Source: a virus (taxonomy: Duplodnaviria > Caudoviricetes). Taken from it: DNA of 64,000 nt. The stretch is from the IMG/VR virus record IMGVR_UViG_2855946969_000005, positions 1 to 64,000 of that record; one strand, written 5' to 3'. The position numbers and the translations under genes are program-made. The number at the start of each line of letters is the position of its first letter. Positions within the stretch are counted from its first letter, which is position 1. Below, piece by piece: positions 7,593 through 36,265 of the stretch. The notes under the pieces were generated by a model, which was given only the letters and a program-made list of their open reading frames with translations, made no database searches and was not told the origin of the DNA.

Positions 7593-8522
7593 TCAGGCCC
7601 GGCCCAGGCGCGCCTGCGCCGTCGTAGAAGCGCCCAGCGCGTTGCAGACGAACTCGCTGTAGAACTCGTTGCCCCGGGTATCCCCGACGTGATCGACGGC
7701 GAGCACCTTGTAGATCCCGTCCGCGGCGATGGTGCCGAGATTGGGTTCGATGTTTCGGACCTCACCACTGACGCTTAGATCGAACGCTGCGCGGTCAATC
7801 GACTTTTCGTCGATATGTACCCGGCCGTGGGCTTGGATGCGCGGGTTCAGGAGCGACCTGCCGATGATGCCGTTGTCGGTCTGCGTGGGGCGGCCGATCA
7901 TGCCGGTGTCGGAGTTCAGCACCACCGCATCCCCCGGCAGTGTCCCGCCCGCGGGCACCACGTTGAGACGCCCATCACGGATGCACCACGTGCATCCGAG
8001 CGACTGGGCGAGGCGGCGCATCGTATCGCGTGCCATGCCGAAGTGGACTTGGGCTCGCGGATCTTTCGTCTGGGCCAGGATCGGAGGGGCATACCCTGGG
8101 GATATGCCGTACTGCTTCATGGCTTTGACGACGAGGTCGTAGAGATCCTTGCCGGTCGAGTTGGCCGGCAACGCCCCCTTGATCGTAGCCTGTTGGTAGG
8201 CCTTCAGGCCGTCTTCTGCGAACAGGTCGACGTAAGTGTCCGTTGGGCTTTCGCGGCCACTATTGCGGGATCTGACATCACCCGTGAAGATCAGGCCGTA
8301 CAGACCCTCGTACCCAAGCTCTAAGCTCACGCGCCCCGAGCGCTTCGGCAAGGCCTGAACTGTGGCCTCGGAGAGGTTTGAGATGCGGATAACCGCGGCT
8401 CTCGGCGATTGAACGAACGGATCCCTGATCCTGAAGCGCACCCGGAACTCGGACAGATCCAAAGTGCCGCCTGAGCCGCCGCTCGCAGTGACCCGGCAAA
8501 CACGGCGGTACAGGCGCGTCAT
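7593..8522 (-). CDS. baseplate hub protein, copy 1
   Basis: I.NLSE, LELGYEG, IF.GDV, WCIRDG, TGMIGRP, GIYKV..V.HVGDTRG.EFYS. Confidence 0.8.
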   Translation of the reverse strand: MTRLYRRVCRVTASGGSGGTLDLSEFRVRFRIRDPFVQSPRAAVIRISNLSEATVQALPKRSGRVSLELGYEGLYGLIFTGDVRSRNSGRESPTDTYVDLFAEDGLKAYQQATIKGALPANSTGKDLYDLVVKAMKQYGISPGYAPPILAQTKDPRAQVHFGMARDTMRRLAQSLGCTWCIRDGRLNVVPAGGTLPGDAVVLNSDTGMIGRPTQTDNGIIGRSLLNPRIQAHGRVHIDEKSIDRAAFDLSVSGEVRNIEPNLGTIAADGIYKVLAVDHVGDTRGNEFYSEFVCNALGASTTAQARLGRA

Positions 8523-8836
8523 TCGACAGGCTCGTAAACGAGAAGCGTCTTGGCGCCGAGGTCGTTGAAGCCGGGCTTATAATCCGGCTCCCCTGGCGTG
8601 AAGATCGCCATGCGACACGGTATGCCCAGATCTGCGTGGGGCTCTAGCAGGTCTTGGCCGGGAAGGAGCGGCAGCCCTGCAATGAGCGCCACATCTTCTG
8701 CCAGCGAAATGTCGAGCGTCCAGCCGCCCTCTTCCTCGTCAACATAGTAGAGGAAAAGAATATAGTAGTTCTCGCCCAACGTGAGGGCCATTTTCTGAGC
8801 CGCGCCAGGAAACACGGGGATTTCAAAGATCGCCAT
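8519..8836 (-). CDS. baseplate plug-like protein
   Basis: MAIFEIP...WTLDI......IAGLPL..G.DLL, positioned between the Dit-like gene and the hub. Confidence 0.7.
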   Translation of the reverse strand: MAIFEIPVFPGAAQKMALTLGENYYILFLYYVDEEEGGWTLDISLAEDVALIAGLPLLPGQDLLEPHADLGIPCRMAIFTPGEPDYKPGFNDLGAKTLLVYEPVE

Positions 8837-8846
8837 AGCAACCCTC

Positions 8847-9530
8847 TCAAAACGCCGCGTTGCCGCTGGGGCCGCTTAGGCCAAAACCTCCGCCGCCGGG
8901 CGCCCGGCCAATGCCCGACTCGGTGTTGGGCAGCAGCGTCCCGAAGCCTACGGCGTTCGGTGAGATCTGCGTCGAGAGCCCTGACAGCCCCCCGATGTTG
9001 ACCTCTGTCGGCAGGACCGTGCCAACGTCCTTCCACGCACCTGTCGCTTCAGGGCTGGCCTGCGAGCCGTTCGGCGCGATGCCGCCTCCGCCGGCTCCAC
9101 CCCCGCCGCCTCGCGCCCGCGCCAAGCGCACCCGGCGCAGGCGCACGATGAGCATGGCGGCGTTGGTGGTCTGGTCCGTCGTGTCGGCGCCGACGAACTC
9201 CACGAGCATGTCGCGGTAGGCGCGCTTGGCGGTGAAAACCTGGAACGGCTCCCGCGCCGCCATCAGGTTGAGAACCGCCTCGTACTGCTCGCGGGAGTAG
9301 CCGACGTAGCCGCCGGTCGCATCCGAGTAGCCGATGCGCATCTCCAGCCGCTCGGGCAGGATGAAAGCATGGTCCGAGACGGAGGCGCCGATCTCGACCG
9401 GGTGGTCCGTGATCGCGACCGCGTCCTGATGGACCTCCGAGACCACCACGTCGGTGACCAGCGAGCCGATCACGCTGCCGGTCGGGACCAGCAGCGCGTA
9501 GAAATCATCGAGCAGGGCCACGGGCGGCAC
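8847..9530 (-). CDS. Dit-like distal tail/baseplate organiser
   Basis: VVSE.H.D...ITDHPVE.GA.VSDHA...P motif. GTG start. Confidence 0.75.
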   Translation of the reverse strand: MPPVALLDDFYALLVPTGSVIGSLVTDVVVSEVHQDAVAITDHPVEIGASVSDHAFILPERLEMRIGYSDATGGYVGYSREQYEAVLNLMAAREPFQVFTAKRAYRDMLVEFVGADTTDQTTNAAMLIVRLRRVRLARARGGGGGAGGGGIAPNGSQASPEATGAWKDVGTVLPTEVNIGGLSGLSTQISPNAVGFGTLLPNTESGIGRAPGGGGFGLSGPSGNAAF

Positions 9531-9935: not shown

Positions 9936-10370
9936 TCAGAGACCGAGCGCGGCGCGGAGGCCTGCCTCGACACGCGCCATGTCCCACGGAGCCAGGAACT
10001 CGCCTCGGTAGCCCTGACCCGCGAGAACGCGGTCCAGCCTCGCGTGCGACACTCTGATGGGCGAAGCGCAACTCGCCCAGACATCCTTCGTGAAGGCTCG
10101 GTAGGATCGCGCCAGGAAGGGAACATCCCAGGGACCCTCCGTCCGAGGTGGCGTCGAGGTGCACGGAACAACGGTGCAGAGCCCCGGGCCAGCGCCGTGC
10201 CGGTGGTTGAGCCTATCGTCTGACACGACGATGGCCCGCCTGTTCTTCCATACCTCGGGAGCCGCCGAGACTGGCGGCTCATAGACAGGGAAGGTGTGCG
10301 GGTTCAGTGGGTCGGGCCCGAAGTAGCACATCAGGATTGCGCCACGGCGGGGCGTGAAGGTGATAGGCAC
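9936..10370 (-). CDS. PemK/MazF-family toxin
   Basis: PITFTPRRGAILMCYF...PE.WK.R.AIVVS...LCTVVPCTST. GTG start at 10370 inferred. Confidence 0.75.
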   Translation of the reverse strand: MPITFTPRRGAILMCYFGPDPLNPHTFPVYEPPVSAAPEVWKNRRAIVVSDDRLNHRHGAGPGLCTVVPCTSTPPRTEGPWDVPFLARSYRAFTKDVWASCASPIRVSHARLDRVLAGQGYRGEFLAPWDMARVEAGLRAALGL

Positions 10371-10377
10371 GATCGTA

Positions 10378-10800
10378 TCAGCGGCCGTGAGCTTGAGCGT
10401 CGGCGCAACTCTCAAGACAGCGCATGATCCACGCATTGAGCGACTGCCCCCTGGCGGAGGCCAGAGCTTCGATCCTGCTCTTCAGACTGTCGGGGATGCG
10501 AACCGTCACTCGGCTTTCGGCCTCACCTGCCTCAGGCTGAGGACCGAAGTGGCGTTCGATCAGATGGGCGAAGCGATGCTTTTCCATCCAAGACTGCGCC
10601 TGTGCTGGCGACAATGGTTCGATGTCCTCAAGCATTTCCTCGTGCGGCCCGCCATAACTCCAGTCACCGTGGTGGCGGAAGTATGCGCCGTGACGGGTCT
10701 GATACAGCGTGTCATGCAAGTGGCCGCCGTCCTGTTCGGCTTTTGCCAGCATCGTCGCCGTTTCAGTGTTGTAGGTCTTCCCGTCCAAGATGCGTTTCAT
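10378..10800 (-). CDS. probable antitoxin with C-terminal Arc/HicB-like ribbon-helix-helix
   Basis: C-terminal RVTVRIPDSLKSRIEALASARGQSLNAWIMRCLE. Directly upstream of the toxin. Confidence 0.7.
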   Translation of the reverse strand: MKRILDGKTYNTETATMLAKAEQDGGHLHDTLYQTRHGAYFRHHGDWSYGGPHEEMLEDIEPLSPAQAQSWMEKHRFAHLIERHFGPQPEAGEAESRVTVRIPDSLKSRIEALASARGQSLNAWIMRCLESCADAQAHGR

Positions 10801-11876: not shown

Positions 11877-12185
11877 TCAGTCGCGCTCCGCCCTTTCCCA
11901 CAAGAAGGACAGGGCTTGGTTGATCGCCTCCTCGGGAGTGTCACGATTCGTCCAGGGCAGATCCCAGTCGGCCCAGACCATCATCTTGACACGGCTCTCT
12001 CCGGTGCCGGGGTAGACGAGATCCGCATAAATCTCGCGCTGTATGTAAGACACAGTCGAGAATGTGCCGCGTAGGTTGTCACGCGCAACAATCCGGATGT
12101 GCTCGGTCACCCCGTTGACGCGAACGTAGAGTTCGACAGTCTTTGCAATCTCGTAGAACTCGGAGACGCCCTCGCGATTATACAT
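11877..12185 (-). CDS. hypothetical protein
   Basis: 102 aa, overlaps the stop of the XRE gene, protein-like composition. Confidence 0.55.
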   Translation of the reverse strand: MYNREGVSEFYEIAKTVELYVRVNGVTEHIRIVARDNLRGTFSTVSYIQREIYADLVYPGTGESRVKMMVWADWDLPWTNRDTPEEAINQALSFLWERAERD

Positions 12186-12420
12186 TCGTAGGCTCCTTCA
12201 ATCTCACGCCAGGGCCGCCCCCATTCTGAGAGATGAACTCCACGCCGGCCTCCTCAAACGCGCGCTGAACCGCCGCCAGGTTATTCGCCGAGGGCACGCG
12301 TCGGCCCTTCTCGAAATCCCGGATCGTGCTCTCGCTCAGGTTTGACAGGCGGGCGAGCTGCATCTGCGGCCAGTCCAGAAGGCCCCGAGCGGCCCGCGAC
12401 TGCGCGGGGGTGAGTGACAT
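12178..12420 (-). CDS. XRE-family HTH regulator (island 1)
   Basis: MSLTPAQSRAARGLLDWPQMQLA...TIRDFEKGRR...GVEFI...GGGPGVRL. Confidence 0.9.
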   Translation of the reverse strand: MSLTPAQSRAARGLLDWPQMQLARLSNLSESTIRDFEKGRRVPSANNLAAVQRAFEEAGVEFISQNGGGPGVRLKEPTNV

Positions 12421-12525
12421 AACGGCTCCATATCTCGGAAACCGTTTAGCACACACGGAAAGCGTTGACAGCGCCTAATTTCCACGGTATCCGTTGGTGG
12501 CACACGGAAACCGAGGGAAGCAGAC

Positions 12526-12822
12526 ATGTCCGTCCGGACCATCTCCTGGAACGCCGCCCTCCGCGATCTCCGCGACGACCGCACCAAGGTCCCAGCCGGC
12601 TTTGCAGGCTCCCGCGCCCTGGCGCAGACTTTCATCAAGACCCGCCGCCTTCCGCTCGTCGTCGCCGGTCAGTACGATCGCTCGGCCATCATGCAGGTCG
12701 CGATCCTCGCGGCGAAGGCGCACCAGGGCCGGTACGGCTCGACCTGGGGCGAGGCGCTCTCCGTCTCGCTGAAGGCGACGTGGCAACTCGCTAAGGCGGC
12801 GCGCGCCGCAACCCGGCACTAG
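12526..12822 (+). CDS. hypothetical protein, paralogue of 24773-25063
   Basis: RT.SWN.ALR...LVVAGQ.DR.AIM...RYG.TW.EA.SV.L.A.WQ...ATRH shared between the two copies. Confidence 0.8.
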   Translation: MSVRTISWNAALRDLRDDRTKVPAGFAGSRALAQTFIKTRRLPLVVAGQYDRSAIMQVAILAAKAHQGRYGSTWGEALSVSLKATWQLAKAARAATRH

Positions 12823-12890: not shown

Positions 12891-13322
12891 GTGGGAATGA
12901 TAAACCGTGTCTCGAACCGGCGGGGGGTGCTTGCCGGGCTGGCGGCAGCACCCTTCGGAGGCGCCGTAGCCGCTGCTGTGGCGGCAGATCCTGATGCGAC
13001 CCTACTCGCGCTCGGAACCCGTTTTGAGGCCGCCTGGGCGCACGAGCGGAAAACGGACGCCCGATTCAAAGGCGACCTCTCGGCCGAGGCAGTCGCAGCC
13101 TGTGAGGCGGCGTACGCGGCCACGGGGCTGATCGCGGAAGAGATCGAGCCGATCCGCGCAAACACGCTCGCAGGCCTCTACGTTCGCGCCCGCGTCCTAC
13201 TCTGGTGCATGGGAAGCGATCCACTGATTGCTGAGCAGTTCTCAGACAGCCCGCCCGCTACCGACGTTCGAATGATCGTCAGCCTTGCGCAGGACGTGCT
13301 CCGGATCGGCGCCGCCCCGTGA
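12891..13322 (+). CDS. twin-arginine-like hypothetical protein
   Basis: NRRGVLAGLAAA...PDATLLALG...ANTLAGLYVRAR. Confidence 0.7.
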   Translation: MGMINRVSNRRGVLAGLAAAPFGGAVAAAVAADPDATLLALGTRFEAAWAHERKTDARFKGDLSAEAVAACEAAYAATGLIAEEIEPIRANTLAGLYVRARVLLWCMGSDPLIAEQFSDSPPATDVRMIVSLAQDVLRIGAAP

Positions 13323-13753
13323 CCTACGAAGAACTGATCGCCTCGCCGTTATGGGCGAGGCAGCGCCAGGAGGCGCTCGCCCGCGACGGCTTCCGCTGCC
13401 GGGGCTGCGACACGACCGAGGATCTTGAGGTCCACCACCGCCGCTACGGCGACCCGCTGGGGACCGAGACCGTCGACGATCTGACCACCCTCTGCCGGGA
13501 ATGCCACCATGCGATCACGGAAGTCATCCGCCGCCGCCGCTCCGCCGGACGCGCCCACATCGTCCCAGAAGCCGCACGCCGCATCCCAGGCGCTGCCGCA
13601 GGCTTCAGCGCCGAAAGGCTACCAGCGCCTCAACTTCAGGCTCACCGGCGTGTCCGGCCTGGTCATGCACAACGGCCAACTGGCGAACCCGCTGAACCCC
13701 TTCGCGAAGGCGCTGAAGGCGGTCTCGGGCAAGCGAGCGAAGACGGACGCTGA
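13319..13753 (+). CDS. HNH endonuclease
   Basis: RDGFRCRGC....LEVHHRRY...DLTTLCRECH. The C-terminal half overlaps the next gene in another frame. Confidence 0.8.
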   Translation: MTYEELIASPLWARQRQEALARDGFRCRGCDTTEDLEVHHRRYGDPLGTETVDDLTTLCRECHHAITEVIRRRRSAGRAHIVPEAARRIPGAAAGFSAERLPAPQLQAHRRVRPGHAQRPTGEPAEPLREGAEGGLGQASEDGR

Positions 13754-14183
13754 CTTCGAGGAGATGGCCCGGATCGAGTTCCTGGGCGGCCTCTACGTCG
13801 GCGAGGACGGCCCTTGCATCCCGGGCGAGTTGATCGAGGCCACGCTGATTTCGGCGGCCAAGAAGGTGAAGCGCGGCCCGCAGGCAAAGGCCGGCATCCT
13901 CTCGGATGGCAACCACCCGATCCTCTACGATGGCCCGCGCAACCCGGACGCCCTCTGGGCCGAGGAGCGCTTCCGGCTCGTGGCCGGCGTGAAGGTCGGG
14001 CAGGCTCGCATCATGCGGACGCGGCCGATCTTTCGCGAATGGTCGGCCGACGTGTTCGTGGATTTCATGCCCGACGCGCTCAACGCTTCCGAGGTGGAGC
14101 AGATGATGCGCACGGCGGGTTCGGTGATCGGCCTGGGCGATTGGCGCCCCAGGTTCGGACGGTTCACAGCCGAGAGGCTGTGA
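13509..14183 (+). CDS. stand-alone Cas7/RAMP-like RNA-binding protein (Vipr-like effector)
   Basis: First strand FRLTGVSGLVMHN, CIPGE.IEATL..AA, RTRPIFREW, and C-terminal Gly-rich loop AGSVIGLGDWRPRFGRF. GGY-NN arrays begin immediately downstream. Confidence 0.75.
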   Translation: MRSRKSSAAAAPPDAPTSSQKPHAASQALPQASAPKGYQRLNFRLTGVSGLVMHNGQLANPLNPFAKALKAVSGKRAKTDADFEEMARIEFLGGLYVGEDGPCIPGELIEATLISAAKKVKRGPQAKAGILSDGNHPILYDGPRNPDALWAEERFRLVAGVKVGQARIMRTRPIFREWSADVFVDFMPDALNASEVEQMMRTAGSVIGLGDWRPRFGRFTAERL

Positions 14184-14185
14184 AG

Positions 14186-14278
14186 GGCCTGTCGGGGCTG
14201 GTCACGGCTGGGTGCGCCATGGTCAGGCGAGGCGGGGCAAGGCAGGGGTGAAGGGCGGCTTCGGCCGTCCTTCCGCCT
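14186..14278 (+). ncRNA. putative guide RNA 1: 13 x 5-nt GGY-NN units plus terminal hairpin
   Basis: GGCCT GTCGG GGCTG GTCAC GGCTG GGTGC GCCAT GGTCA GGCGA GGCGG GGCAA GGCAG GGGTG, then hairpin GAAGGGCGGC-TTCG-GCCGTCCTTC and CGCCT. Confidence 0.8.
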
Positions 14279-14338
14279 GATGACTGTGAACTCCCATCGC
14301 GGATGAGCGCGATCGGCGTCCACAGCGTGGACGAGCCA

Positions 14339-14440
14339 GGCGGGCTAAGGCACGGCATGGCAAGCTGAGGCAAGACCGGGTTCGGCTTGGCAAGGCGAGG
14401 CAAGGGTGAAGGGGTCGGCTCGCGCCGGCCCCTTCCGCCT
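14339..14440 (+). ncRNA. putative guide RNA 2: 14 x 5-nt GGY-NN units plus terminal hairpin
   Basis: GGCGG GCTAA GGCAC GGCAT GGCAA GCTGA GGCAA GACCG GGTTC GGCTT GGCAA GGCGA GGCAA GGGTG, then hairpin GAAGGGGTCGGC-TCGC-GCCGGCCCCTTC and CGCCT. Two small hairpins precede it (14296-14313, 14317-14333). Confidence 0.8.
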
Positions 14441-14479: not shown

Positions 14480-14896
14480 ATGGGCATTCTGCGCGGCCTC
14501 CTCTTGCTCGTCATCATCTTCGTGTTCGTGGCCATGCGCCGCGATCCGCCGGAACCTGATCCCGAGCCGGACCGCAACGTCACGGTCATCGAGAAGAACG
14601 TGCAGCCTCCGGCCGGGCGGCCCCCGCGTGCTGAGCCAAAGCCTCAGCCGCAGATATCGCCCACACCACAGGGCGCCGAGCGGCCCAAGCTTCAGTGCAT
14701 GATCACGCGAGCCGGCAATGGCTCGTACTCGTCCTATGATGGGGGCAAATCGGCGCTGGCCATCATGATGGCATGTCCGAACGACTATGCTGCGTGGGTC
14801 GCCTATTGTGAGACGAGCGGCCCGAACGAAGACGGGAGGTGCGATGTCGCTTTGGCTACCATGGTGCAGGTGATGCTGAAGCAAGCGGGGCGCTGA
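14480..14896 (+). CDS. membrane-anchored periplasmic hypothetical protein
   Basis: N-terminal TM segment, Pro-rich linker, 4-Cys domain. Confidence 0.65.
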   Translation: MGILRGLLLLVIIFVFVAMRRDPPEPDPEPDRNVTVIEKNVQPPAGRPPRAEPKPQPQISPTPQGAERPKLQCMITRAGNGSYSSYDGGKSALAIMMACPNDYAAWVAYCETSGPNEDGRCDVALATMVQVMLKQAGR

Positions 14897-14958: not shown

Positions 14959-15327
14959 ATGCGCGCTGCCCTCACCCTTATCTCCGTGCTGAGCCTAACC
15001 GTCAGCGCGCTAGCGGCTGAGCGAATCCCATCTTTTCCGAAGCGGACCAGTTACGACGACGCCCGAAATAGCCTGCGTGCGCTCGGCTGGGCGCCAGTCG
15101 TGCAAACGGGCCAGCGCTGTGGGACGGATGGTTGTTACGAGCGGTGCGCGCCAGGATTTGAAGCTCGGTGCCTCACCTACCCCGAGACGGCCATCTGCCG
15201 CGGGACAGGCTTGGCCGCCTGCGAGTTCCTGTGGAAGCGAAACGATGTGCTGATCGAGATCCGGACAATCGGTGAGGATGATCCGCCTACTGTCGCCGGG
15301 GTCAGTTGCAAGGTTAATTGTAGATAG
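14959..15327 (+). CDS. exported Cys-rich protein, candidate muramidase inhibitor
   Basis: Signal peptide, Y..AR..L...GW.P...C..YPE...C.GTG...C.F.W. Convergent with tape measure copy 2. Confidence 0.7.
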   Translation: MRAALTLISVLSLTVSALAAERIPSFPKRTSYDDARNSLRALGWAPVVQTGQRCGTDGCYERCAPGFEARCLTYPETAICRGTGLAACEFLWKRNDVLIEIRTIGEDDPPTVAGVSCKVNCR

Positions 15328-15358: not shown

Positions 15359-18280
15359 TCACGCATACCTGTTGTTGAAGTTCCCGATCAGATCGGACCG
15401 CTGGCGCGATGCTGCGCCTGTGATGTGGCTCGCAGCCTCCTTCGGGTCGGAGACGCCGGTCACGGTTGCGGTCGTTGTGCGCTGATCGTTGAACGTCCGC
15501 TGATCGTAGACCGTTTTTCCGGCTTTGGAATCACCCGCTCCCAGCGGGCTCGTCTGGAAGGCGCCGCCCGCTTTCCACTGTTCGGCCGTCAGGCCGCGCG
15601 GGTTGATCTTGCCGATGCTGCCCTCTGCCTTGCCGATCCACATTTCTGGATAAGCCACAAGCGTTTGCTCGACCTTTTCGGCAGTTTGAAGGGCGACTTT
15701 TCTCAGCTTCTCAACGGCAGCATTGACCTCGGGTGCTAGGCCAGAGCCCTGGCCAGCCGTGTTACCGGCGCCGAACGAGTCGTTGAACCTCTGTTCAAAT
15801 GCAGAGCTGCCTTTGGGCTTGTCTGGGTCCTGTACTGCGCTTTGCATCCGCTCCAACATGGTCTGCGGATCAATCAGTTTGCCGTCCTTGTCCCGCATCT
15901 CAAGGTGTAGATGTGGGCCAGTTGAACGACTGTCGGTCGGGCCAACAGCGCCGATCCGCCCCCCTCCTTTCACAGCGTCACCCTGCTTCACCGAAGGGAC
16001 AACATGTCTATAAGTAGACGACGAACCGTCTTCGTGCTCGATGGTAATGTCGCCATGCTCATTGAGCTTGACCACCTTCCCATCTTTCAGTGCTTTCACC
16101 CCGGTCCCTGGCGTTGCGGCGAGATCGACTCCATTGTGATGACGGACATCGCCGTGGATGGGGTGTTGGCGCGGTCCAAACTTCGACGTGATGCGTCCGC
16201 CACCTTCCAAGACGTTGGCGCCGTCGCCACCAGCCTTTCCATTCGACCCGGTTTGGCCCCCTGATCGATCATCCCGCTCAAGGGCTCGTCGCGCAGCCTC
16301 ACGCTCCTTCGGGTGCGTCTTGAACCCCTCCCAAGCACCTAGGCCCTGCTGTCGCGCGATCCAATGCGCGATCTGATCTTGTGTCTTTTCATCGAACTTC
16401 GTTGTGTTCGGGTCAAGGCCAAGCGCTTTGATGGCTTCCTTGAGCGTAGAACCAACGATTTGGTATCGACCGAGCGCCGACGAATTCGGATTCCCAGGCT
16501 GTTGGCGCATGAACTTGCCGAGGTCTAGGATCTCAGCAAGTGTCTTGTCCGTAAGTGTTTGCTCTTTACCGCCAGGGAGATATTTACCGTAGCCTAGAGA
16601 GGTGTTGTAACCATTCCCGGGCCGGCCGGCAGTACCTTCGGCTCGCGCAATGTTATCAAGGAGGCCATCTGGCGCGGGACCTAAGCCCAACTTCCCCTTC
16701 ACCCAGCCGAGACCACGGCTGACGATGTTGGGGCCGCGCTCGGCACCCTGCTGAGTCTTGCCGTAGATGCGGTCGGCGATGCCCGGGTCGAGCGTGCGGA
16801 CAACGCTCTCGTGCCAGGACCGCGAGCCGGCCCCCGCGTCGAGGATACCGGCATCGTTGGCCACCTTGGCCGCGACGCCGATCCCGAGAAGGCCGAGCAG
16901 CCACGTGGGCGGACGCATGGCGCCGAGCGTCCCGAGCAGGCCCACGACCTTGCCTAGGGGTGCCAGCACCTTGGCCGCCAGCACGACCGCGAAGGCCGCG
17001 AAGGCCGCGGTGAGACCGTCCTGGCCGGTGATCGCCTTGGCGACCCGGTCGAAGCCCTCCCAGAGGTCCTTCAGGGCGTTCAGCGTGGACTGGATCGCGG
17101 GCCACCACCGATCCCACGGGATCAGGGTGTCCTTCGCGCCCTCGCGCCACTTCTGGTAGTCGTCGTAGAGGACGACGATTGCGCCCGCGAGCGCGAGCAG
17201 GGCCGCGACGGGCCCGCTCTTGAGCAGGAGGAGCGCGGTCGCCACCGCTGCGATCGAGATCAGGAACTGCTTCGTCGCCGGGTCGAGGTCGTTAAATTTG
17301 CCGATCAGGTCGACGACGCGGGTGGCCAGGCGCAGCAGGGTCTCACCGATGCCGATGACCGCCTTGGCGATTCCGTCCGCGTTGGCGAGCAGGTAGTCCG
17401 TCAGGCGCCCGATCTGCGCGCCGAACTTCGTCGTCAGCGCGGCGCCGATGCGGGTGAACAGGATGTCGACGGCGGCCCACATGCGCCGCCACATATTCAT
17501 GAAGGCGGCCGAGTCCTTGGCCGCGCGGTCGGGATCGACGCCGGCCTTGCCGAGCATCTCCCGGTATTCGAGGACCGCCTTCTTGAACGAGCCGTCCTTC
17601 AGCGCGATCAGCGTGCGCTCGTCGATCCCGAGCGCGTCCGCGTAGGCCTTGGCCTGGAAGTGCGGCATCTTGGCGAACGCGTCGCCGAGCTCCATCGTGA
17701 CCTCGGTGAGATCGCGGAGCTTGCCGTTCTGGCGCGTGGCGACGCCGAGGTTCTTGAGCATCCCCTCGTAGCCGGGGGAGGAGCGCATGTTCTGCGCCAG
17801 CGCCTCGAGCGAGCCCGCCGCGCCCTCGGCCGTCGAGCCGAGCTGCGAGGCGGCGTAGCTGAACGCCTTGAGGTTTCCGACCTTGGAGTTGGTGCGCTCG
17901 GAGGCGTAGTAGAGCTTCTCCAGCCCGTCCGAGATCTTCACGACCGCGGCAGTGGAGGCGAGGGCCGCGGCCTCCAGGGCGACCGCCATCGCGGCCACGC
18001 CCTTCACGAAGGCGGTCGTGCGCTCCTTGGCCGCCTTCGCGGCAGCGGACTCGGCGGCCTCCCGCTCCTTGGCCCGCTTCAGCGCATCCTTGGCCGCGCG
18101 GACATCCGCGTCGGCCTTGATCTTGTTCGCTTCCTGCGCCGACTTCGCGCCCGCGAGCCGGGCCGCCTCGGCCCGCTTCTCGGCCTCGATGACGGCCTTC
18201 TCGTAGGCCTTGACCGAGCCCTCCGCCTTGGACTGGGAGGCGGTGTCAACGCGCCAGCCCAGGAGGTAGACCGCGAAGCG
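15359..18280 (-). CDS. tape measure protein copy 2 with lambda-lysozyme/GH104-like and M23 peptidase domains; canonical start codon missing
   Basis: Paralogue of 33314-36265. LDNIARAEGT...YN...SSALGRYQIV..TL...F....QD, plus M23 motifs HNGVD and TGPHLHLE. The frame is open to 18280, but the first GTG is at 18007. Confidence 0.8.
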   Translation of the reverse strand, partial: RFAVYLLGWRVDTASQSKAEGSVKAYEKAVIEAEKRAEAARLAGAKSAQEANKIKADADVRAAKDALKRAKEREAAESAAAKAAKERTTAFVKGVAAMAVALEAAALASTAAVVKISDGLEKLYYASERTNSKVGNLKAFSYAASQLGSTAEGAAGSLEALAQNMRSSPGYEGMLKNLGVATRQNGKLRDLTEVTMELGDAFAKMPHFQAKAYADALGIDERTLIALKDGSFKKAVLEYREMLGKAGVDPDRAAKDSAAFMNMWRRMWAAVDILFTRIGAALTTKFGAQIGRLTDYLLANADGIAKAVIGIGETLLRLATRVVDLIGKFNDLDPATKQFLISIAAVATALLLLKSGPVAALLALAGAIVVLYDDYQKWREGAKDTLIPWDRWWPAIQSTLNALKDLWEGFDRVAKAITGQDGLTAAFAAFAVVLAAKVLAPLGKVVGLLGTLGAMRPPTWLLGLLGIGVAAKVANDAGILDAGAGSRSWHESVVRTLDPGIADRIYGKTQQGAERGPNIVSRGLGWVKGKLGLGPAPDGLLDNIARAEGTAGRPGNGYNTSLGYGKYLPGGKEQTLTDKTLAEILDLGKFMRQQPGNPNSSALGRYQIVGSTLKEAIKALGLDPNTTKFDEKTQDQIAHWIARQQGLGAWEGFKTHPKEREAARRALERDDRSGGQTGSNGKAGGDGANVLEGGGRITSKFGPRQHPIHGDVRHHNGVDLAATPGTGVKALKDGKVVKLNEHGDITIEHEDGSSSTYRHVVPSVKQGDAVKGGGRIGAVGPTDSRSTGPHLHLEMRDKDGKLIDPQTMLERMQSAVQDPDKPKGSSAFEQRFNDSFGAGNTAGQGSGLAPEVNAAVEKLRKVALQTAEKVEQTLVAYPEMWIGKAEGSIGKINPRGLTAEQWKAGGAFQTSPLGAGDSKAGKTVYDQRTFNDQRTTTATVTGVSDPKEAASHITGAASRQRSDLIGNFNNRYA

Positions 18281-18282
18281 GC

Positions 18283-19209
18283 CTAGGCCCGCCCCAGCTT
18301 CGTCTGGGCTGTCGTAGAGGCCCCAAGCGCGTTGCAGACGAACTCAGAATACCAAGCCTCGCCTCTGGTGTCTCCGATGTGATTTACAGACGATACTTTG
18401 TAGGTTCCGTCAGTCGAGATCGTGCCGAGATTAGGCTCAGACTTGTTAACTTCGCCTTTTACTGAGAGATCGAACGGGGATAGATCAATTGACCTTTCGT
18501 CAATTACAACCTTGTGTCCGGCCTGGATCCTGGCATTAAGGAGGGATCTGCCAACGATGCCCTGCTCAGTTTGCAACGGTCTTCCTATGAGACCGCTATT
18601 AGAATTCAATACAACAGGCCCGCCGGGAAGCGCCTCGCCAGCGGGCAGTACGTTCAGTCTGCCGTCCCGGATCAGCCATGTGCAGCCGAGGGACTGCGCG
18701 AGCCGTCTCATCGTATCGCGGGCCATGCCAAAATGAACCTGCGCCCTGGGATCCTTGGTCTGGGCAAGAATCTTGGGGATGTTCCCGGCAGTGATGCCAT
18801 AGGGCTTCATCGCTTCAAGAACGATGTCTAGTATGTCTTTACCTGTTGAATTCGCCGGCAACGACTTTGACACTGAAGCGTACTGATACGGCTTGAGGCC
18901 GTCCTGTGCGAATATGTCAACGTATGTGTCTGTCGGGCTTTCGCGACCAATATTGCGTGCCCGAACCTCGCCCGAAAAAATTTGCGAGTAGAGTCCGGCA
19001 TACCCGGCGATTAGGGCAATTCTTCCGCCTCGTTTTGGTATGGACCGCGCCGTACTATCGGAGAGGTTCGTTATTCGGATGGCTGCAGCTCGCGGTGTCT
19101 GAACCACCGGGTCGGTGATCCGGAAGCGCACCCGGAACTCGGACAGGTCGAGCGTGCCGCCACCGCTGCCGACATGAAGCTGGCAGATCCTGCCGTACAG
19201 TTGCGTCAT
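18283..19209 (-). CDS. baseplate hub protein, copy 2
   Basis: Full-length paralogue of 7593-8522 (for example GGTLDLSEFRVRFRI, QVHFGMARDTMRRLAQSLGCTW). Lower GC than copy 1. Confidence 0.85.
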   Translation of the reverse strand: MTQLYGRICQLHVGSGGGTLDLSEFRVRFRITDPVVQTPRAAAIRITNLSDSTARSIPKRGGRIALIAGYAGLYSQIFSGEVRARNIGRESPTDTYVDIFAQDGLKPYQYASVSKSLPANSTGKDILDIVLEAMKPYGITAGNIPKILAQTKDPRAQVHFGMARDTMRRLAQSLGCTWLIRDGRLNVLPAGEALPGGPVVLNSNSGLIGRPLQTEQGIVGRSLLNARIQAGHKVVIDERSIDLSPFDLSVKGEVNKSEPNLGTISTDGTYKVSSVNHIGDTRGEAWYSEFVCNALGASTTAQTKLGRA

Positions 19210-19725: not shown

Positions 19726-19881
19726 AGATGCGCAAAGCAAAAGGCCCCGCGTCATCGCAGGGCCTCTGATCCAAGGTCGGTTGTGCGCGAAATTCTCGCT
19801 GGGGACAAGCGGTTTTGCTCGCCGCGTCACCTAGTCGTCGCAGGATCGGTTATGGCCCAAGTTCCAGCGCCGGTCTAGGGG
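19726..19881 (-). promoter_or_regulatory. conserved non-coding element, copy 2
   Basis: Collinear with 9612-9764. Confidence 0.65.
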
Positions 19882-20060
19882 GAGCCAAGATCGCAGCGCC
19901 CCCTCGGCCCGGCAAGTACGGCGCCGATGGAGTCCAGGGGACGGACCGCATCAGGCTATATCTCAAATCGCAGTCGCACCGTAGCATCAGAGGCGCATTA
20001 GGTCGTATCAATCGAGCCGCCGTCAATCAGTGCGGCTCATTAAGAGGTCCGGGGGAAGCG

Positions 20061-31332: not shown

Positions 31333-31374
31333 GGCCACCTGACAGCGGGCCACGGGCGTCTCTGACTTCCAAAT

Positions 31375-33313: not shown

Positions 33314-36265
33314 CTAAGCATATCGGTTCTGGAACTGTCCGATCATATTGGAACGTTGTCGATTCTCAGCGCCAATTACCTGATCTGCTGCGGTCTTCGG
33401 CTCAGAGACGCCATTGACGGTCGTCGTGCGAGTTCCCTCATTGAATACTCGATTATCAATGATGGTCTTGCCTGCAGATGTTCCGCCGGCACCTAAAGGT
33501 GCAGTCTCGAACGCCGGCCGCCGCCGCCAATTGTCGACGGCATCGAGACGTGAAGGACCCTTGCCGAGAGACGTTTCAGCTTGGTCCATCCAAGCTCGCG
33601 GATAGGCGATCAGGGTTTGCTCAACCTTGCCGGCCGTGTCGAGCGCTACACGCTTCAGTCGATCAACGGCAGCATCGACCTCAGGCGAGGCCGCACTCTG
33701 CTTCCGCTCCAGGGAGGACTGAGGATCGACTAAGTTGCCATCCTTATCCCTCAACTCGAGATGAAGGTGCGGGCCTGTGGACCTACCGTCAGTGGGCCCA
33801 ATTTTTCCAATTTGTCCGCCACCCTTTACCGCGTCTCCATTTCGGACGCTCGGCACAATGTGACGATATGTCGAAGAAGACCCGTCCGGGTGCCGTACGG
33901 TTACATCGCCTTCGCGGTTAATCGACACGATGCCATCGCGCATCGCCTGCACATCTGTCCCCTCGGGGGCTGCCAAGTCGATGCCGTTGTGATGCTTCAT
34001 CTCGCCTGTTTTGGGATGACGGCGCATCCCGAACCGGGAGGAAAGCCGGCCCTGGCCGCCTAGAGGATGATGCCCTCTCTCAACGGCGCCGCCCTCCTCC
34101 GGCTTGCCCTTGACGATTGGGAGCCAGCCTCGTGCGTGCGCGCCCCGGTTGCCCTCCTCGCCGACCCCATACCGCTCAAACTCGCGGATTCCCTCCATCG
34201 CGTGGTCAAGGTCGCGCGGGTTGCGGAGGATCTTGCCAGCTTTCTCGGTCCGCCGGCTGTCGTAGAGCGGGTCGCCGGGCTTGGCATCGAGTTCTGCGAT
34301 GGCGCCCTTCGTCTGCCAGCGTGCGTCGTAGGGGTCGCCACCCTGGTCCTCAATCCACTTCTTGATCTTGGGCCAGCGGTTCTTGTCCCATTGGAACAGG
34401 CCGGTGTGGCCGCCCGCCACCTCGTTGCGCGCACGAGGGTTGAAGGTGCTTTCGGTCTGTGCAGAGCCGAGCATGGCGGCGATCGCCTCATCGGAGTACC
34501 CTGCGGCGCTCAACTCCTCCATCATAGCCCGCGCATTCCCATTCTGCGCGAGCTTACCGATTCGGCTTGTACCGCCCCCAGCCGGATCCCCACCGAGTCC
34601 GACCTTCTCCTTCACCCAACCGAGACCTCGGCTGACGATGTTGGGCCCGCGCGCAGCGTCCTGCGAAGTCTGCCCGTAGATCCGATCTGCGATGCCCGGA
34701 TCAAGCGTGCGGAGAATGCTCTCGTGCCATGACCGGGAGCCGGCGCCGCCGTCGAGGATCCCATTGTCGTTTGCCACCTTCGCCGCGACGCCGACGCCCA
34801 GGAGCGCGAGCATCCACCCCGGGGGACGCATGCTCCCGAGGGAGCCAAGGAGGCCGACGACCTTCCCGAGCGGGGCCAAAACCTTCGCCGTGAGCACCAC
34901 CGCGAACGCTGCGAACGCCACGGTCAAGCCGTCCTGCCCGGTCAACGCCTTCGCCGCGCGATCGAAACCTTCCCAGAGTGACTTGAGCGCCGCTAGTAAA
35001 TTCTCAACGGCCGGGGCCCATTTGTCCCAATCGACAAGATTGTCTGTCGAGCCCTCGCGCCACTTCTTATAATCGTCGTAGAGGACGACGATGGCCGCCG
35101 AGAGCGCCAACAGAGCTGCGACAGGCCCGCTCTTGAGGAAAAGCAGTGCCCCCGCAATCGCTGCCATTTGCAGAACGAAGGATCGCGTACCGGGATCGAG
35201 GCGCGTAAATGCCTCCACCAAATCCACAACACGCTTCGCGAGCCGAAGGAGCGTTTCCCCAATGTTGATTACGGATTTCGTAATCTGATCGGCGTTGTCG
35301 TGTAGGTACTTGGTGAATCGTTCGATCTGCGCAGAGAACTTGTCGAATACCGCGCCACCGATCCGGATTTTCAGGCCGTCGATAGCCGCGAACATGCGAC
35401 GCATCGCATTCTCGAACACGACCGCGCCAGCCGCAGCCTTGTCCGGATCGACGCCCATCTTGGCGAGACTGTCGTTGTATTCCTTGGTGAGCTTATCTAC
35501 TTCGTTGCTGCGAAGCATGCGAACGAGATCTTCATGCAGACCCATCGCATTGGCGAAGGAATTGGCCTGATGCCGCGGCTGCTCTGTAAAAGCACGCTTC
35601 AGTTCTTCGATAAGCTTTACAGTGCCGATGAGGTCGCCATTGGCATCCCGCGTCTGGACCCCAAGGTTTTTCAGCATCGTCTCATAGCCAGGGGAGTCGC
35701 GCATGTTCTTGGCGAGCGCTTCGACTGACTGAATTGCAGTCTCAGACGATACGCCCAACTGCTCCGCCGCATAGGCGAACGCCTTGAGATCTTTGACGCT
35801 GCTGTTCGTGCGCTTGCTCGTATAGTACGCACGCTCCAAGCCGGACGCGATATTGTCCACAGCCGCCGTAATACCGACCGCGGCGGCCTGGATAGCCGCC
35901 ACCATCGCCAAGGAGCCCTTGACGAAAGCCGCAGTGCGGTCTTCATGGGATTGCGCAGCGCGCTTGTTGGCTGTGGTCTCGGTCTCCCGAGCCTCCGCGC
36001 TCGCCTTCGCGGCTTTCGCTTCGGCCGCCTGCTGGCGCTTCAGGTCGGCGATGTGGGCGGCGGCCCCCTTCGTCCTGACGCCGCGCTCGCGGTTGGTCTC
36101 GATGATCCGCTTCGCCGCGCCCTGCACGGTCGCCTTCGTGGCGCGCGACTCTGCCACCTCGACAGCGGACGCCACCTCGTCCGGCGCCGCCTTCGCGCGC
36201 CGGACGCTGGCCTCATCGACCTTGAAGCCAAGGGCGTAAAAGAAGTCCTGAAGTATGTTGTTCAC
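33314..36265 (-). CDS. tape measure protein copy 1 with phage tail lysozyme and M23 peptidase domains
   Basis: Follows the tail chaperones. GYS.EAIAAMLG....ES.FNP.A....G..GLFQW...R, HNGID and TGPHLHLE. Confidence 0.85.
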   Translation of the reverse strand: MNNILQDFFYALGFKVDEASVRRAKAAPDEVASAVEVAESRATKATVQGAAKRIIETNRERGVRTKGAAAHIADLKRQQAAEAKAAKASAEARETETTANKRAAQSHEDRTAAFVKGSLAMVAAIQAAAVGITAAVDNIASGLERAYYTSKRTNSSVKDLKAFAYAAEQLGVSSETAIQSVEALAKNMRDSPGYETMLKNLGVQTRDANGDLIGTVKLIEELKRAFTEQPRHQANSFANAMGLHEDLVRMLRSNEVDKLTKEYNDSLAKMGVDPDKAAAGAVVFENAMRRMFAAIDGLKIRIGGAVFDKFSAQIERFTKYLHDNADQITKSVINIGETLLRLAKRVVDLVEAFTRLDPGTRSFVLQMAAIAGALLFLKSGPVAALLALSAAIVVLYDDYKKWREGSTDNLVDWDKWAPAVENLLAALKSLWEGFDRAAKALTGQDGLTVAFAAFAVVLTAKVLAPLGKVVGLLGSLGSMRPPGWMLALLGVGVAAKVANDNGILDGGAGSRSWHESILRTLDPGIADRIYGQTSQDAARGPNIVSRGLGWVKEKVGLGGDPAGGGTSRIGKLAQNGNARAMMEELSAAGYSDEAIAAMLGSAQTESTFNPRARNEVAGGHTGLFQWDKNRWPKIKKWIEDQGGDPYDARWQTKGAIAELDAKPGDPLYDSRRTEKAGKILRNPRDLDHAMEGIREFERYGVGEEGNRGAHARGWLPIVKGKPEEGGAVERGHHPLGGQGRLSSRFGMRRHPKTGEMKHHNGIDLAAPEGTDVQAMRDGIVSINREGDVTVRHPDGSSSTYRHIVPSVRNGDAVKGGGQIGKIGPTDGRSTGPHLHLELRDKDGNLVDPQSSLERKQSAASPEVDAAVDRLKRVALDTAGKVEQTLIAYPRAWMDQAETSLGKGPSRLDAVDNWRRRPAFETAPLGAGGTSAGKTIIDNRVFNEGTRTTTVNGVSEPKTAADQVIGAENRQRSNMIGQFQNRYA

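Follow-up and report, generated by a model that had tools for sequence, protein, structure and literature searches.

Gene content of the tail-module cassette

The window analysed here is a stretch of 64,000 nt, positions 1 to 64,000 of the virus record IMGVR_UViG_2855946969_000005, whose whole contig (99,285 nt, 67% G+C) carries terminase, portal, capsid, sheath, tape-measure and baseplate genes. The tail-gene region of this myovirus-like phage contig holds the VIPR (Viral Interference Programmable Repeat; 10.64898/2026.04.26.720920) system described below, which is made up of a small HNH gene, a gene encoding a RAMP protein (vipr) and two arrays of GGYNN units, the putative guide RNAs vrRNA1 and vrRNA2 (Table 1). 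This cassette (13319-14440) is located between tape-measure gene 1 and the Dit/hub gene 2 (7593-9530). The contig has two diverged copies of both the tape-measure and the hub genes, the hub copies being 70% identical to each other. Neither an integrase nor a satellite hallmark turned up in the island at 20-33 kb.

Table 1 Features of the cassette and predicted guide sites in the window
Feature	Position	Strand	Evidence or composition
XRE-type HTH gene, divergent	12178..12456	-	Pfam HTH_3 E 7.8e-8; PADLOC 'control protein'
HNH endonuclease gene, predicted accessory (vap-like) partner	13319..13753	+	Pfam HNH PF01844, HNH PHROGs
vipr (RAMP protein)	13509..14183	+	PDB 36pp, phrog_4652, AF2, Foldseek
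vrRNA1 (putative), ~93 nt if begun at first unit	14186..14278	+	12 GGYNN units, GGGTG, hairpin, CGCCT
vrRNA2 (putative), about 102 nt	14339..14440	+	13 GGYNN units, GGGTG, hairpin, CGCCT
vrRNA2 near-cognate site, tape-measure gene 1 (15359-18007)	15483..15520	-	21/26 NN, codon phase 0
vrRNA2 near-cognate site, tape-measure gene 2 (33314-36265)	33435..33472	-	21/26 NN, 10/13 units perfect, phase 0
vrRNA1 best site, baseplate-hub gene 1 (18283-19209)	18656..18690	-	18/24, codon phase 0
vrRNA1 second-best site, homologous position, baseplate-hub gene 2 (7593-8522)	7966..8000	-	17/24, phase 0

Judged from its sequence, the vipr ORF encodes a Vipr RAMP protein in which the residues contacting GGY and the target backbone are kept. 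A single-sequence search matched the PDB entry 36pp, 'SUSP1 Vipr protein', over residues 4-186 of 188 (E 5.2e-34), and the comparison of this entry with a Vipr profile extended over the full length (E 8.9e-45); the ORF also matched phrog_4652 (E 2.6e-52). This full-length homology bears out the likeness to viral VIPR systems that the first-pass annotation, made from the letters alone, had pointed out. The nearest relatives are 80% identical to the ORF, which is intact, and the homologues of Felixounavirus-type phages are only ~39-40% identical to it. The AF2 model of the protein (pLDDT 92.8, pTM 0.86) was compared with the PDB by Foldseek. The best 31 of the 42 matches with E<=1e-3 were all CRISPR RAMP chains, with Csm3 chains at the top (E 5e-5, TM about 0.5), in line with the RAMP/Cas7-like protein proposed at the outset.

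In the homologue alignment, the key positions of the G-loop GLGDWRPRFGRF are invariant, and a beta-hairpin at 120-139 of Vipr bears a conserved Arg. The cryo-EM preprint on SUSP1 Vipr (10.64898/2026.04.26.720927) assigns His and Asp to G1, Arg and Trp to G2, Glu and Arg to Y3, and Lys to the target backbone. The SUSP1 residues H17, K33, E71, R138, D177, W178 and R179 are identical in the alignment to the protein studied here (H18, K34, E71, R136, D175, W176 and R177 in core numbering), and all seven are invariant or nearly so among 23 homologues.

The conserved core of vipr spans 13617-14180 (188 aa) and is followed by the TGA stop codon at 14181-14183. The ATG at 13509 is the sole in-frame start codon and yields a 36-aa Ala/Pro/Ser-rich extension that overlaps the HNH gene; no start codon was found in the vipr frame near the conserved N-terminus. 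Homologues are mostly 187-191 aa long and begin beside a GYQRL motif, and a long N-terminal extension in place of a proximal start is also present in other Vipr homologues. GC3 in the vipr frame is 0.90-0.93.

The 5-nt periodicity indeed begins 2 nt past the stop codon, as had been noticed, with the first unit at 14186. The two tracts consist of 12 units (14186-14245) and 13 units (14339-14403), each followed by GGGTG (14246-14250 and 14404-14408, respectively), which accounts for the 13 and 14 units counted earlier. All 25 units have G at position 1 and C or T at position 3; the second G, at position 2, is present in 19 units and absent from the other six. The resulting trinucleotides (GGC 16, GGT 3, GTC 2, GCT 2, GCC 1, GAC 1), together with an information content of 0.17 and 0.11 bits at the NN positions 4-5, agree with the earlier description of a near-constant trinucleotide, with GTC, GCC, GCT and GAC variants, plus a variable dinucleotide. 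The shared GGGTG, hairpin and CGCCT ends were likewise found in both tracts: the first tail has a 10-bp stem (14250-14259/14264-14273) with a TTCG loop before CGCCT at 14274-14278, and the second has a 12-bp stem (14408-14419/14424-14435) with a TCGC loop before CGCCT at 14436-14440. Folding tools without a pseudoknot model gave plain hairpins in these tails, and no pseudoknot of the SUSP1-clade kind was seen with them.

When the two strands of the window were scanned for GG periodicity over 12 units, the tracts scored 9 and 10, and no other place scored more than 8. On both strands of the whole contig, a tolerant GGY caller returned exactly these two arrays; the same caller returned 2 arrays in total on 20 block-shuffled contigs. 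A stricter array caller found no arrays on the contig because of the six units that lack the second G. Neither tract was reported by Tandem Repeats Finder, and in the Rfam scan no family rose above noise and hammerheads were absent. The sigma-70 promoter scan had 0 matches, and the terminator scan had one, located elsewhere and not at the vrRNA hairpins, which are not followed by a T-run. No RNA sequencing run containing the stretch was listed, and the DNA runs share only 0.11 and 0.05 of its words.

In the upstream gene product, the HNH domain (PF01844, E 5.4e-6) extends roughly from residue 27 to residue 66. The HNH reading frame stays open into vipr, and its GC3 falls from 0.89 up to 13508 to 0.42 after 13617, which indicates that the overlapping HNH end lacks coding signal. 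The frame also continues into vipr in the closer relatives examined, but not in four more distant ones. The divergent XRE-type HTH gene precedes the run of + strand genes whose last members are HNH, vipr and the vrRNAs. This HTH gene has homologues near vipr in 10 of 55 related loci and a paralogue in a second island (24448-24933, by blastp self-comparison of the ORFs), and is a possible regulator rather than a core part. When the neighbouring ORFs were searched for in the 55 loci by tblastn, the downstream ORFs 14480-14896 and 14959-15327 and the upstream ORF 12526-12822 gave no match, and the upstream ORF 12891-13322 matched in only one locus. PADLOC assigned none of the 71 window ORFs to cas1/2/3/5/6/8, and no CRISPR-like array was found in the window, as the first reading had stated. 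An unrelated TnpB/Cas12f-like gene at 57351-58487 was also reported by PADLOC.

Related loci and published VIPR systems

The association between vipr and the arrays was examined in 55 related loci, a check that the first-pass annotation had proposed. A same-strand array lies just downstream of vipr in 46 of them and solely upstream in 3 more; all 334,578 nt of these loci contain only 1 opposite-strand array. The position and strand of the array beside vipr are kept across several phyla, and Methylobacterium and Microvirga are among the relatives. Where the array is downstream (46 loci), a single vrRNA is the rule, with 35 such loci. The 892 units in the relatives have NN information of 0.08 and 0.01 bits. 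Of the 33 array ends that were folded in the relatives, most run on into a hairpin, and compensatory changes were found in 8 of the 9 consensus hairpin pairs. By tblastn, which was used for the final count, 43/55 loci have an HNH homologue immediately before vipr and in the same orientation (Pfam on the longest upstream frames detected HNH in only 14/51). With this gene upstream both here and in most of the relatives, the protein is not the 'solo' one that had been described.

VIPR has already been described in three 2026 bioRxiv preprints, so that the locus is an added member and the system itself is not new. According to one of them (10.64898/2026.04.26.720920), VIPR RNAs have 9-16 GGYNN (YNNGG) units with conserved GGY, variable NN and a structured 3' tail, are ~100 nt long and co-purify with Vipr, a minimal RAMP protein with an RRM core, a glycine-rich loop and a thumb. 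Their targets follow a 1-nt-skip rule in which the skipped base is the codon wobble position, and disturbing either GGY or the NN pairing abolished silencing in the SUSP1 study (same source), a finding against which the six units here that lack the second G have to be weighed.

The locus very probably belongs to VIPR in both membership and mechanism. By analogy with the published mechanism, one Vipr protomer would bind each GGY of the ~93-nt and ~102-nt vrRNAs, and the resulting filament would present the NN pairs, which would read double-stranded DNA with one base skipped per unit; the GC-rich hairpin tail would cap the vrRNA 3' end. We infer that vrRNA2 may be aimed at a conserved C-terminal stretch of tape-measure gene alleles and vrRNA1 at a conserved stretch of baseplate-hub gene alleles, with the skipped base presumably falling on the codon wobble position. 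The cognate targets would most likely belong to a relative of the phage or to a satellite with tail genes that competes in the same host. The upstream HNH protein, which is conserved, probably contributes cleavage in addition to the binding.

Type II VIPR (Escherichia phage SUSP1 and a Pseudomonas fulva prophage) resembles the locus in its full-length homologous protein with the contact residues kept, its GGYNN guides with a structured 3' tail adjoining the gene, its phage-borne location and, if the guides here are read as predicted, its 1-nt skip in codon phase. However, type II accessory genes are given as predicted DNA-binding proteins (10.64898/2026.04.26.720920), in contrast to the upstream HNH gene here. 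The locus further differs from type II in its plain GC hairpin without a detectable pseudoknot, in having both vrRNAs downstream, and in its predicted targets, which are tail structural genes instead of the satellite recombinase or lysis-lysogeny regulators named in the published work. The nuclease-associated types III-V share a predicted nuclease accessory, and HNH domains are mentioned in the legend of fig. S21 (10.64898/2026.04.26.720920); the single vrRNA of most relatives is counted as a further likeness. Types III and V act as host immunity according to that preprint, which finds them enriched in the defence islands of cells, whereas the present locus lies inside a phage tail module and the nearest matches of its guides are the phage's own tail genes. 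Going by the text and figure legends of that preprint, the locus is probably of the nuclease-type VIPR class, its 'type III': the predicted nuclease accessory is present as the HNH gene, here and in the 43 relatives, but the locus is flanked by the tape-measure and baseplate genes of a virus record and does not stand in a cellular defence island, a context that the preprint presents as an enrichment and not as a strict requirement.

The Class 1 CRISPR backbone (Cas7/Csm3/Cmr4) has in common with Vipr the RAMP fold and the glycine-rich loop and, if the analogy holds here, polymerisation on RNA with a fixed period. In contrast to these systems, no cas operon or CRISPR array accompanies the protein, the period is 5 nt versus 6 nt, and three of every five guide bases would be sequestered, so that the target would be read as two bases with one skipped.

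Predicted targets and alternative readings

A gapped target code had been proposed for the NN pairs. The predicted gap is one base per unit and not three, because matches above the null were obtained with the 1-nt skip alone; when skips of 0-3 were compared, only skip 1 yielded a non-self score >17. The vrRNA2 score of 21/26 was reached by none of 2000 shuffled guides on the contig (shuffle maximum 20), and its two sites are at homologous positions of both tape-measure genes, each with five mismatches distributed over 3-5 units. The vrRNA1 score of 18/24 is not above the contig-wide null (121/2000 shuffles reach 18); in a restricted test, which was designed post hoc, 30/5000 shuffles reach 18.

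The contig's own copies match the guides at only 71-81% (80.8% for vrRNA2), which suggests that the cognate targets are most likely to be found in another, related phage or in a satellite bearing tail genes in the same host. A precedent in the published work is SUSP1, a VIPR phage opposed to a satellite that bears homologues of phage tape-measure and baseplate genes. The guides here resemble the same two kinds of gene; the key SUSP1 target, however, is the satellite excision recombinase, and no satellite was identified here. A tape-measure allele is, by a small margin, the favoured target of vrRNA2, and a hub allele is put forward tentatively, with doubt prevailing, for vrRNA1. Rival alleles of these tail genes are probably what the guides are really directed at; none was found in public data.

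The searches for such alleles covered several data sets. The vrRNA2 pattern with <=3 mismatches was found in 0/5 genomes holding close vipr relatives and in 0/401 genomes of the family of genome G001. Exact 1-nt-skip patterns of vrRNA1 and vrRNA2 had 0 and 0 matches in viral contigs, and units 1-12 of vrRNA2 had 0 matches in metagenome contigs. Units 1-10 of vrRNA1 had 1 match in metagenome contigs (L136), which was judged to be due to chance; it lies on a 47% G+C contig, out of frame within another ORF. On the protein side, the last 73 aa of the tape-measure protein had no relative, including in the 121 genomes of the genus of G001, and region 880-982 had no homologous proteins. Among representative proteins, the tape-measure C-terminus had 6 matches at E<=0.001, one being the window's own, and none carried the guide-implied peptide. 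The 80 loci obtained with a 200-aa tape-measure C-terminus were unusable, as the search had settled on peptidase M23 motifs. For the hub, 16 relatives (31-48% identical) were found in viral contigs, and the best guide score among them was 15/24.

The guides of the related loci were compared with their own surroundings as well. Five of 28 have a match within +-20 kb that <=6/300 shuffles reach, and the other 23 have no such near-self match. Three of the five matches fall, with the phase-0 frame open, within structural genes of phages, namely a tape measure (18/20), a tail protein and a head-tail adaptor. The tape-measure match is that of the L004 guide, at 90% and ~4.5 kb from its own vipr; the near-match of locus L012 is in the gene that immediately precedes HNH. 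When the flanks were restricted to +-3 kb, 2 guides out of 58 from the relatives matched them above the null.

These near-self matches raise the question of whether the guides act on the carrier itself or on rivals. Despite the mismatches, they might regulate the carrier's own tape-measure and hub genes, e.g. in lysogen silencing or in the timing of late expression. Such a role would draw on the vrRNA2 match, which is just over the published natural-target threshold, and on the L004 match, but we regard it as rather unlikely: each site has its five mismatches in a code in which disturbed NN pairing abolished silencing according to the paper, an associated nuclease would make self-targeting costly, and 23/28 relatives' guides have no comparable match. 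The position of the cassette, next to the very genes that hold the best guide sites, would also fit RNA-guided homing or allele exclusion, in which an HNH-vipr-vrRNA cassette is aimed at rival alleles of the flanking tape-measure and hub genes; we consider this unlikely. The accompanying scheme, in which HNH would cleave a co-infecting relative and recombinational repair would copy the cassette while own alleles are spared by 5-7 NN mismatches, is just as unlikely. Intron-less homing by phage HNH enzymes follows the same logic, and the conservation of HNH in relatives, the L012 near-match directly upstream of HNH and the L004 near-match in a nearby tape-measure gene speak for the homing reading. 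Against it, only the two guides of relatives match their flanks above the null within +-3 kb, no cassette-free genome with a cognate site was found, and the term 'homing' is absent from the third VIPR preprint.

Two further readings dispense with guided targeting altogether. The absence of a proximal start codon, the six degenerate units of 25 and the lack of a detected cognate target could mean that the copy is decaying or inactive, with fold and repeats kept and function lost. This is very unlikely given the intact ORF, its 80% identity to the nearest relatives, the retention of all contact residues, the high GC3 in the vipr frame and the two intact tails, and long N-terminal extensions also occur in other homologues. 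That the pentamer tracts have nothing to do with the protein, and are generic G-rich repeats or terminator-like elements, can hardly be credited, even though the genome is GC-rich and the hairpins could act as terminators; only two such arrays occur in 99 kb, their position and strand by vipr are kept in 46/55 loci of several phyla, and neither a T-run nor a predicted terminator is found at the hairpins.

Under the favoured reading of a VIPR system directed at rival tail genes, the locus adds an alphaproteobacterial-type, phage-borne, HNH-linked member to the VIPR family, one that could be recognised from raw sequence without tools; within this clade, the small HNH gene and the arrays are conserved to the same degree. 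If cognate alleles are found, they would offer a natural test of the number of NN mismatches that separates self from rival. Should homing be true instead, the cassette would spread through the repair of cleaved rival genomes, and the duplicate target genes could be either a scar of exchange or a redundancy that lessens the effect of VIPR in a rival. The locus is thus a tail-module cassette whose guides resemble, in codon phase, the tape-measure and hub genes of its own carrier, and in one relative do so still more closely. This resemblance bears on the published comparison, in which, according to 10.64898/2026.04.26.720920, natural targets were defined by an NN match of >=80% and no self-contig match of >=80% occurred in the paper's sets: on their own contigs, vrRNA2 and the L004 guide reach 80.8% and 90%, respectively.

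A Vipr homologue followed by two vrRNA-like arrays

A full-text literature search showed that VIPR (Viral Interference Programmable Repeat) is described in three preprints. According to the accessible part of one of them (10.64898/2026.04.26.720920), the system comprises a minimal RAMP protein (Vipr), usually with one accessory gene (vap), and vrRNAs of ~100 nt in which 9-16 YNNGG repeats precede a structured tail. Its setting is mostly viral or proviral, and each variable dinucleotide (NN) pairs with the target while one target base, usually the codon wobble base, is skipped. Seven types are distinguished; in types III-V the accessory gene is of nuclease or helicase type. The window locus matches every sequence-level feature in this accessible description and is therefore a member of the described family, not a new kind of system.

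The vipr ORF had no match in Pfam and matched phrog_4652 in PHROGs (E 2.6e-52), a family of unknown function. In a large protein collection, 1803 candidates yielded 1008 homologues with E<=0.001. Most are 187-191 aa long, their sources are Methylobacterium, Microvirga, Roseomonas and metagenomes, and those with a name are all labelled 'hypothetical protein'. The single PDB sequence matched by the window protein is 36pp, the 'SUSP1 Vipr protein' from an Escherichia phage (E 5.2e-34, residues 4-186 of the 188-residue core), and a 23-sequence profile matched it at E 8.9e-45. As given in the accessible part of the cryo-EM preprint on SUSP1 Vipr (10.64898/2026.04.26.720927), H17 and D177 contact G1, R138 and W178 contact G2, E71 and R179, among others, contact Y3, and K33 contacts the target backbone. 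In the alignment to 36pp, these residues are identical in the window protein (7/7), and they are invariant or nearly invariant across 23 aligned homologues. Homology to Vipr, with the putative contact residues kept, is thus evident from the alignments. An AlphaFold2 model built from the 23-homologue alignment was confident (pLDDT 92.8, pTM 0.86), and Foldseek against PDB returned 42 matches at E<=1e-3. Among the matches listed (31 of 42), all were CRISPR RAMPs (Csm3/Cas7, Cmr4, type VII Cas7 and Cas6 chains; TM about 0.45-0.55), in agreement with the Cas7/RAMP fold proposed by the first-pass annotation. Because 36pp was not returned by the Foldseek structural library, the tie of the window protein to Vipr itself is sequence-based.

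Homologues start one to three codons ahead of a conserved GYQRL-type N-terminus, with a Shine-Dalgarno-like sequence upstream. No ATG, GTG or TTG occurs at the matching position of the window vipr, and a start codon beside the conserved N-terminus is likewise absent in a related locus, L005. The sole in-frame start, an ATG at 13509, lies within the HNH gene and adds 36 Ala/Pro/Ser-rich residues; comparable N-terminal extensions are present in some database homologues, and we leave this ATG as a candidate start.

The 5-nt periodicity starts two bases past the vipr TGA, and both tracts can be read in register (see the table). Unit position 1 is G in 25/25, position 2 is G in 19/25 and position 3 is C or T in 25/25, while the information at positions 4-5 is close to nil over the 25 units. 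The tails are GC-rich hairpins followed by CGCCT, with 10 bp and a TTCG loop in tract 1 and 12 bp and a TCGC loop in tract 2. The two tracts gave the top two GG-periodicity scores on both window strands, and a tolerant GGY caller, run over both strands of the 99,285-nt contig, called no array but these two, which confirms the repeat tracts reported by the first-pass annotation. The same caller found 2 arrays summed over 20 block-shuffled contigs; the tracts are not an effect of base composition. A stricter caller missed both of them because 6 units are without the second G. A promoter scan found no promoter, and the vrRNA ends as given are guesses.

Features of the window locus and its surroundings
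Feature	Position	Strand	Remark
Major phage genes, in order		-	terminase, portal, protease, major head, sheath, tube-like protein, chaperone, then tape-measure gene 2
Tape-measure gene 2	33314-36265	-	after chaperone
vrRNA2 near-match	33435-33472	-	21/26; tape-measure gene 2, near 3' end
Hub gene 1 (baseplate hub)	18283-19209	-	after tape-measure gene 2
Tape-measure gene 1	15359-18007	-	after hub gene 1
vrRNA2 near-match	15483-15520	-	21/26; tape-measure gene 1, near 3' end
Dit-like gene	8847-9530	-	after tape-measure gene 1
Hub gene 2 (baseplate hub)	7593-8522	-	after Dit-like gene; then baseplate wedge, tail fibres
HNH gene	13319 onward	+	upstream of vipr
vipr ORF	13509-14183	+	stop TGA at 14181-14183
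Tract 1 (vrRNA1)	14186-14245	+	12 units, then GGGTG
Tract 2 (vrRNA2)	14339-14403	+	13 units, then GGGTG
Divergent pairs at island heads	12178-12822 and 24448-25063	-/+	XRE-type HTH gene (-), small phrog_36439 gene (+)
PemK/MazF-like toxin-domain ORF	9936-10436	-	Pfam E 1e-7
DUF4238 ORFs	19815-20723 and 20615-21256	+	adjacent frames
GIY-YIG nuclease domain fused to HTH domains	31056-32786	+	adjoins Ivy-like protein
Ivy-like lysozyme-inhibitor domain protein	32862-33311	+
phrog_513 transposase	48821-49462	-
TnpB/Cas12f-like gene	57351-58487	+	PADLOC Cas12f E 1.6e-62; phrog_506 transposase
Second, larger HNH endonuclease gene	62919-63818	-

Related loci and the HNH partner

Scanning one genome per species gave 55 loci encoding vipr relatives, from Alphaproteobacteria, Actinobacteria, Cyanobacteria, Acidobacteria and a Phycisphaerae MAG. 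Using the same tolerant caller, and counting arrays on the gene's strand that start between 30 nt before and 700 nt after the gene end, we found at least one downstream array in 46/55 loci, a check that the first-pass annotation had suggested; 3 more loci have upstream arrays only. No array was called in 6/55 loci, and L005 among them nonetheless visibly carries a degenerate array with register shifts. Over all 334,578 nt of the loci, opposite-strand arrays numbered 1 and same-strand arrays elsewhere 5. A stable hairpin follows most of the folded array ends in relatives; its sequence is lineage-specific, and compensatory changes occur in 8 of the 9 consensus pairs of a 12-sequence tail alignment. 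Together with the full-length homology to 36pp and the conserved contacts, the arrays in relatives support the earlier reading of a RAMP/Cas7-like VIPR system.

A Vipr homologue was also seen in 131 GenBank phage records, and in all 25 of the 131 that were listed it is annotated as hypothetical or 'Phage protein' or is unannotated. In Mycobacterium phage LittleE (NC_042322.1, 25292-25888), the homologue gp34 is 44% identical and annotated as hypothetical; it lies on the opposite strand, with the tape-measure gene on one side and a minor tail gene on the other.

The ORF upstream of vipr contains an HNH domain. A tblastn search with its first 87 residues found an HNH homologue in 43/55 loci, immediately upstream of vipr and on its strand (a further locus, L008, is without upstream sequence), so the description of the protein as 'solo' does not hold. 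At the junctions of close relatives (L001, L002, L005, L007 and L012), the HNH frame is open to about 130 nt into vipr, and in more remote relatives (L033, L039, L040 and L042) it stops just before vipr. At the window's own junction, 13509-13753, GC3 of the overlap is 0.93 in the vipr frame and 0.42 in the HNH frame, showing that no coding signal is present there in the latter. Apart from an XRE-type HTH gene near vipr in 10/55 loci, no other neighbouring ORF is conserved with vipr across the 55 loci. Since HNH is conserved upstream and other neighbours mostly are not, the core of the clade is HNH, vipr and the vrRNA(s). The window locus thus has two vrRNA-like arrays with tails, a conserved HNH partner and a phage context. 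In the accessible text of the family preprint (10.64898/2026.04.26.720920), predicted nucleases are confined to antiviral types III and V, and HNH domains are listed, in the legend of fig. S21, for Vap structures of types II, III and VII. Because types II and VII are described there as DNA-binding, we infer from this text and legend that the clade is type III.

Likeness of the guides to tail genes

Targets were scanned by the published rule, in which successive NN are joined by one wildcard, on both strands, and the score counts matching informative positions. The two vrRNA2 near-matches are homologous, and both would be read with NN at codon positions 1-2 and the wobble base skipped. None of 2000 vrRNA2 shuffles reached 21 on the contig (shuffle maximum 20); with skips of 0 and 2 the best contig scores were 16-17, and a skip of 3 gave only the trivial self-match to its own array. 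Read as codons, vrRNA2 spells G-[KN]-T-[IM]-[KN]-[DE]-[KN]-R-S-[FL]-[KN]-[DE]-[KN], and the two tape-measure genes encode GKTIIDNRVFNEG and GKTVYDQRTFNDQ at these sites. From this comparison, the guide looks like a third allele of a conserved tape-measure stretch. The two best vrRNA1 sites (18/24 and 17/24) are homologous and lie in codon phase 0 in the two hub genes. Contig-wide, 121/2000 shuffles reach 18, which is not significant alone; in a restricted test, designed after the hits had been seen and covering codon-phase-0 positions of 24 structural genes, 30/5000 shuffles reach 18 and 6/5000 reach the second score.

No fully matching target was found in any collection searched: a vrRNA2 target with at most 3 mismatches occurred in 0/5 and 0/401 genomes, an exact match to either guide in no viral contig, and a vrRNA2 match in no metagenome contig. 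A shortened vrRNA1 pattern matched one metagenome contig, which was judged chance. Among 1.84 billion cluster representatives, only three others match the tape-measure C-terminus at or near E<=1e-10, and none contains the guide-implied peptide; in viral contigs, relatives of the hub have 31-48% identity and guide scores of at most 15/24. The candidate target genes are rare.

Among relatives, 2/58 guides match their flanks above shuffles within +-3 kb. A wider test took in 26 loci with up to +-20 kb on either side and 28 guides with 8 or more units; for 5/28 guides the best match was reached by at most 6/300 shuffles, with about 0.6 expected by chance, and all five matches lie in an open phase-0 frame. 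They are L004 (18/20, 0/300 shuffles; tape-measure gene, phrog_28), L012 (21/30, 4/300; tail protein, phrog_2048, directly upstream of HNH), L030 (21/30, 5/300; head-tail adaptor, phrog_442), and L015 (16/20, 5/300) and L038 (16/20, 6/300), both in genes with no phage family. The 10-unit L004 guide has its site, in codon phase, at 15415-15443 (- strand) of L141, the genome containing L004, roughly 4.5 kb away from the vipr of that locus. The other 23/28 guides had no match above shuffles within +-20 kb, where power is low for short guides. A minority of cassettes therefore carry guides resembling structural genes of their own carrier, which fits an aim at close relatives of the carrier. In the accessible part of the family preprint (10.64898/2026.04.26.720920), the paper's own sets contain no self-contig match at >=80%, whereas the matches here reach 90% (L004) and 81% (vrRNA2). 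Within the literature searched, vrRNA and 'tape measure' co-occur only in the third VIPR preprint, where the tape measure belongs to satellite genes; the gene kinds of the SUSP1 satellites (tape-measure and baseplate) are the two kinds that the guides here resemble.

Proposed mechanism and contig context

By analogy with the published mechanism, one Vipr protomer would bind each repeat unit, sequestering GGY and presenting NN, double-stranded DNA would be read such that each unit skips one base, and the tail would cap the filament. In addition, we propose that the targets may be tape-measure and hub alleles of a competing relative or of a tail-gene-bearing element, that the 5-7 mismatches would spare the carrier's own tape-measure and hub copies, and that HNH may add cleavage. 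The likeness to resident genes can, with much lower probability, also be read as self-regulation of the carrier's tail genes, in which the near-matches themselves would be the sites of action. Another rival, about as unlikely, is an RNA-guided homing cassette; the words 'HNH' and 'homing' are absent from the text of the third VIPR preprint. It is also improbable that the locus is a decaying copy of a VIPR system, a reading favoured by the units lacking the second G and opposed by the intact contact residues. The locus adds a member to the described VIPR family, and a few of its details deserve a specialist's look.

The contig is one virus record, of which the window makes up the first 64 kb. 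The minus-strand gene series is broken by two plus-strand islands (about 20-33 kb and 9.9-15.3 kb), the second of which contains the VIPR cassette, giving the layout TMP2 - island - hub1 - TMP1 - island (VIPR) - Dit - hub2. Paralogue pairs on the contig are few, namely the tape-measure genes (about 52% identity), the hub genes (70%), one HTH gene and one small phrog_36439 gene per island, and a weak neck-like pair. The doubled tape-measure and hub genes may have arisen by duplication, at a mosaic junction or through an inserted element. Both islands open with the divergent pair, whose copies are 40% (HTH) and about 56-62% (phrog_36439) identical, which suggests a common regulatory head in front of differing cargo.

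The PemK/MazF-like ORF lies at the edge of the VIPR island, and the GIY-YIG and Ivy-like genes stand beside tape-measure gene 2. DUF4238 is apparently split across two frames, which may be a frameshift. With the TnpB/Cas12f-like gene, the window also holds an independent relative of RNA-guided nucleases.
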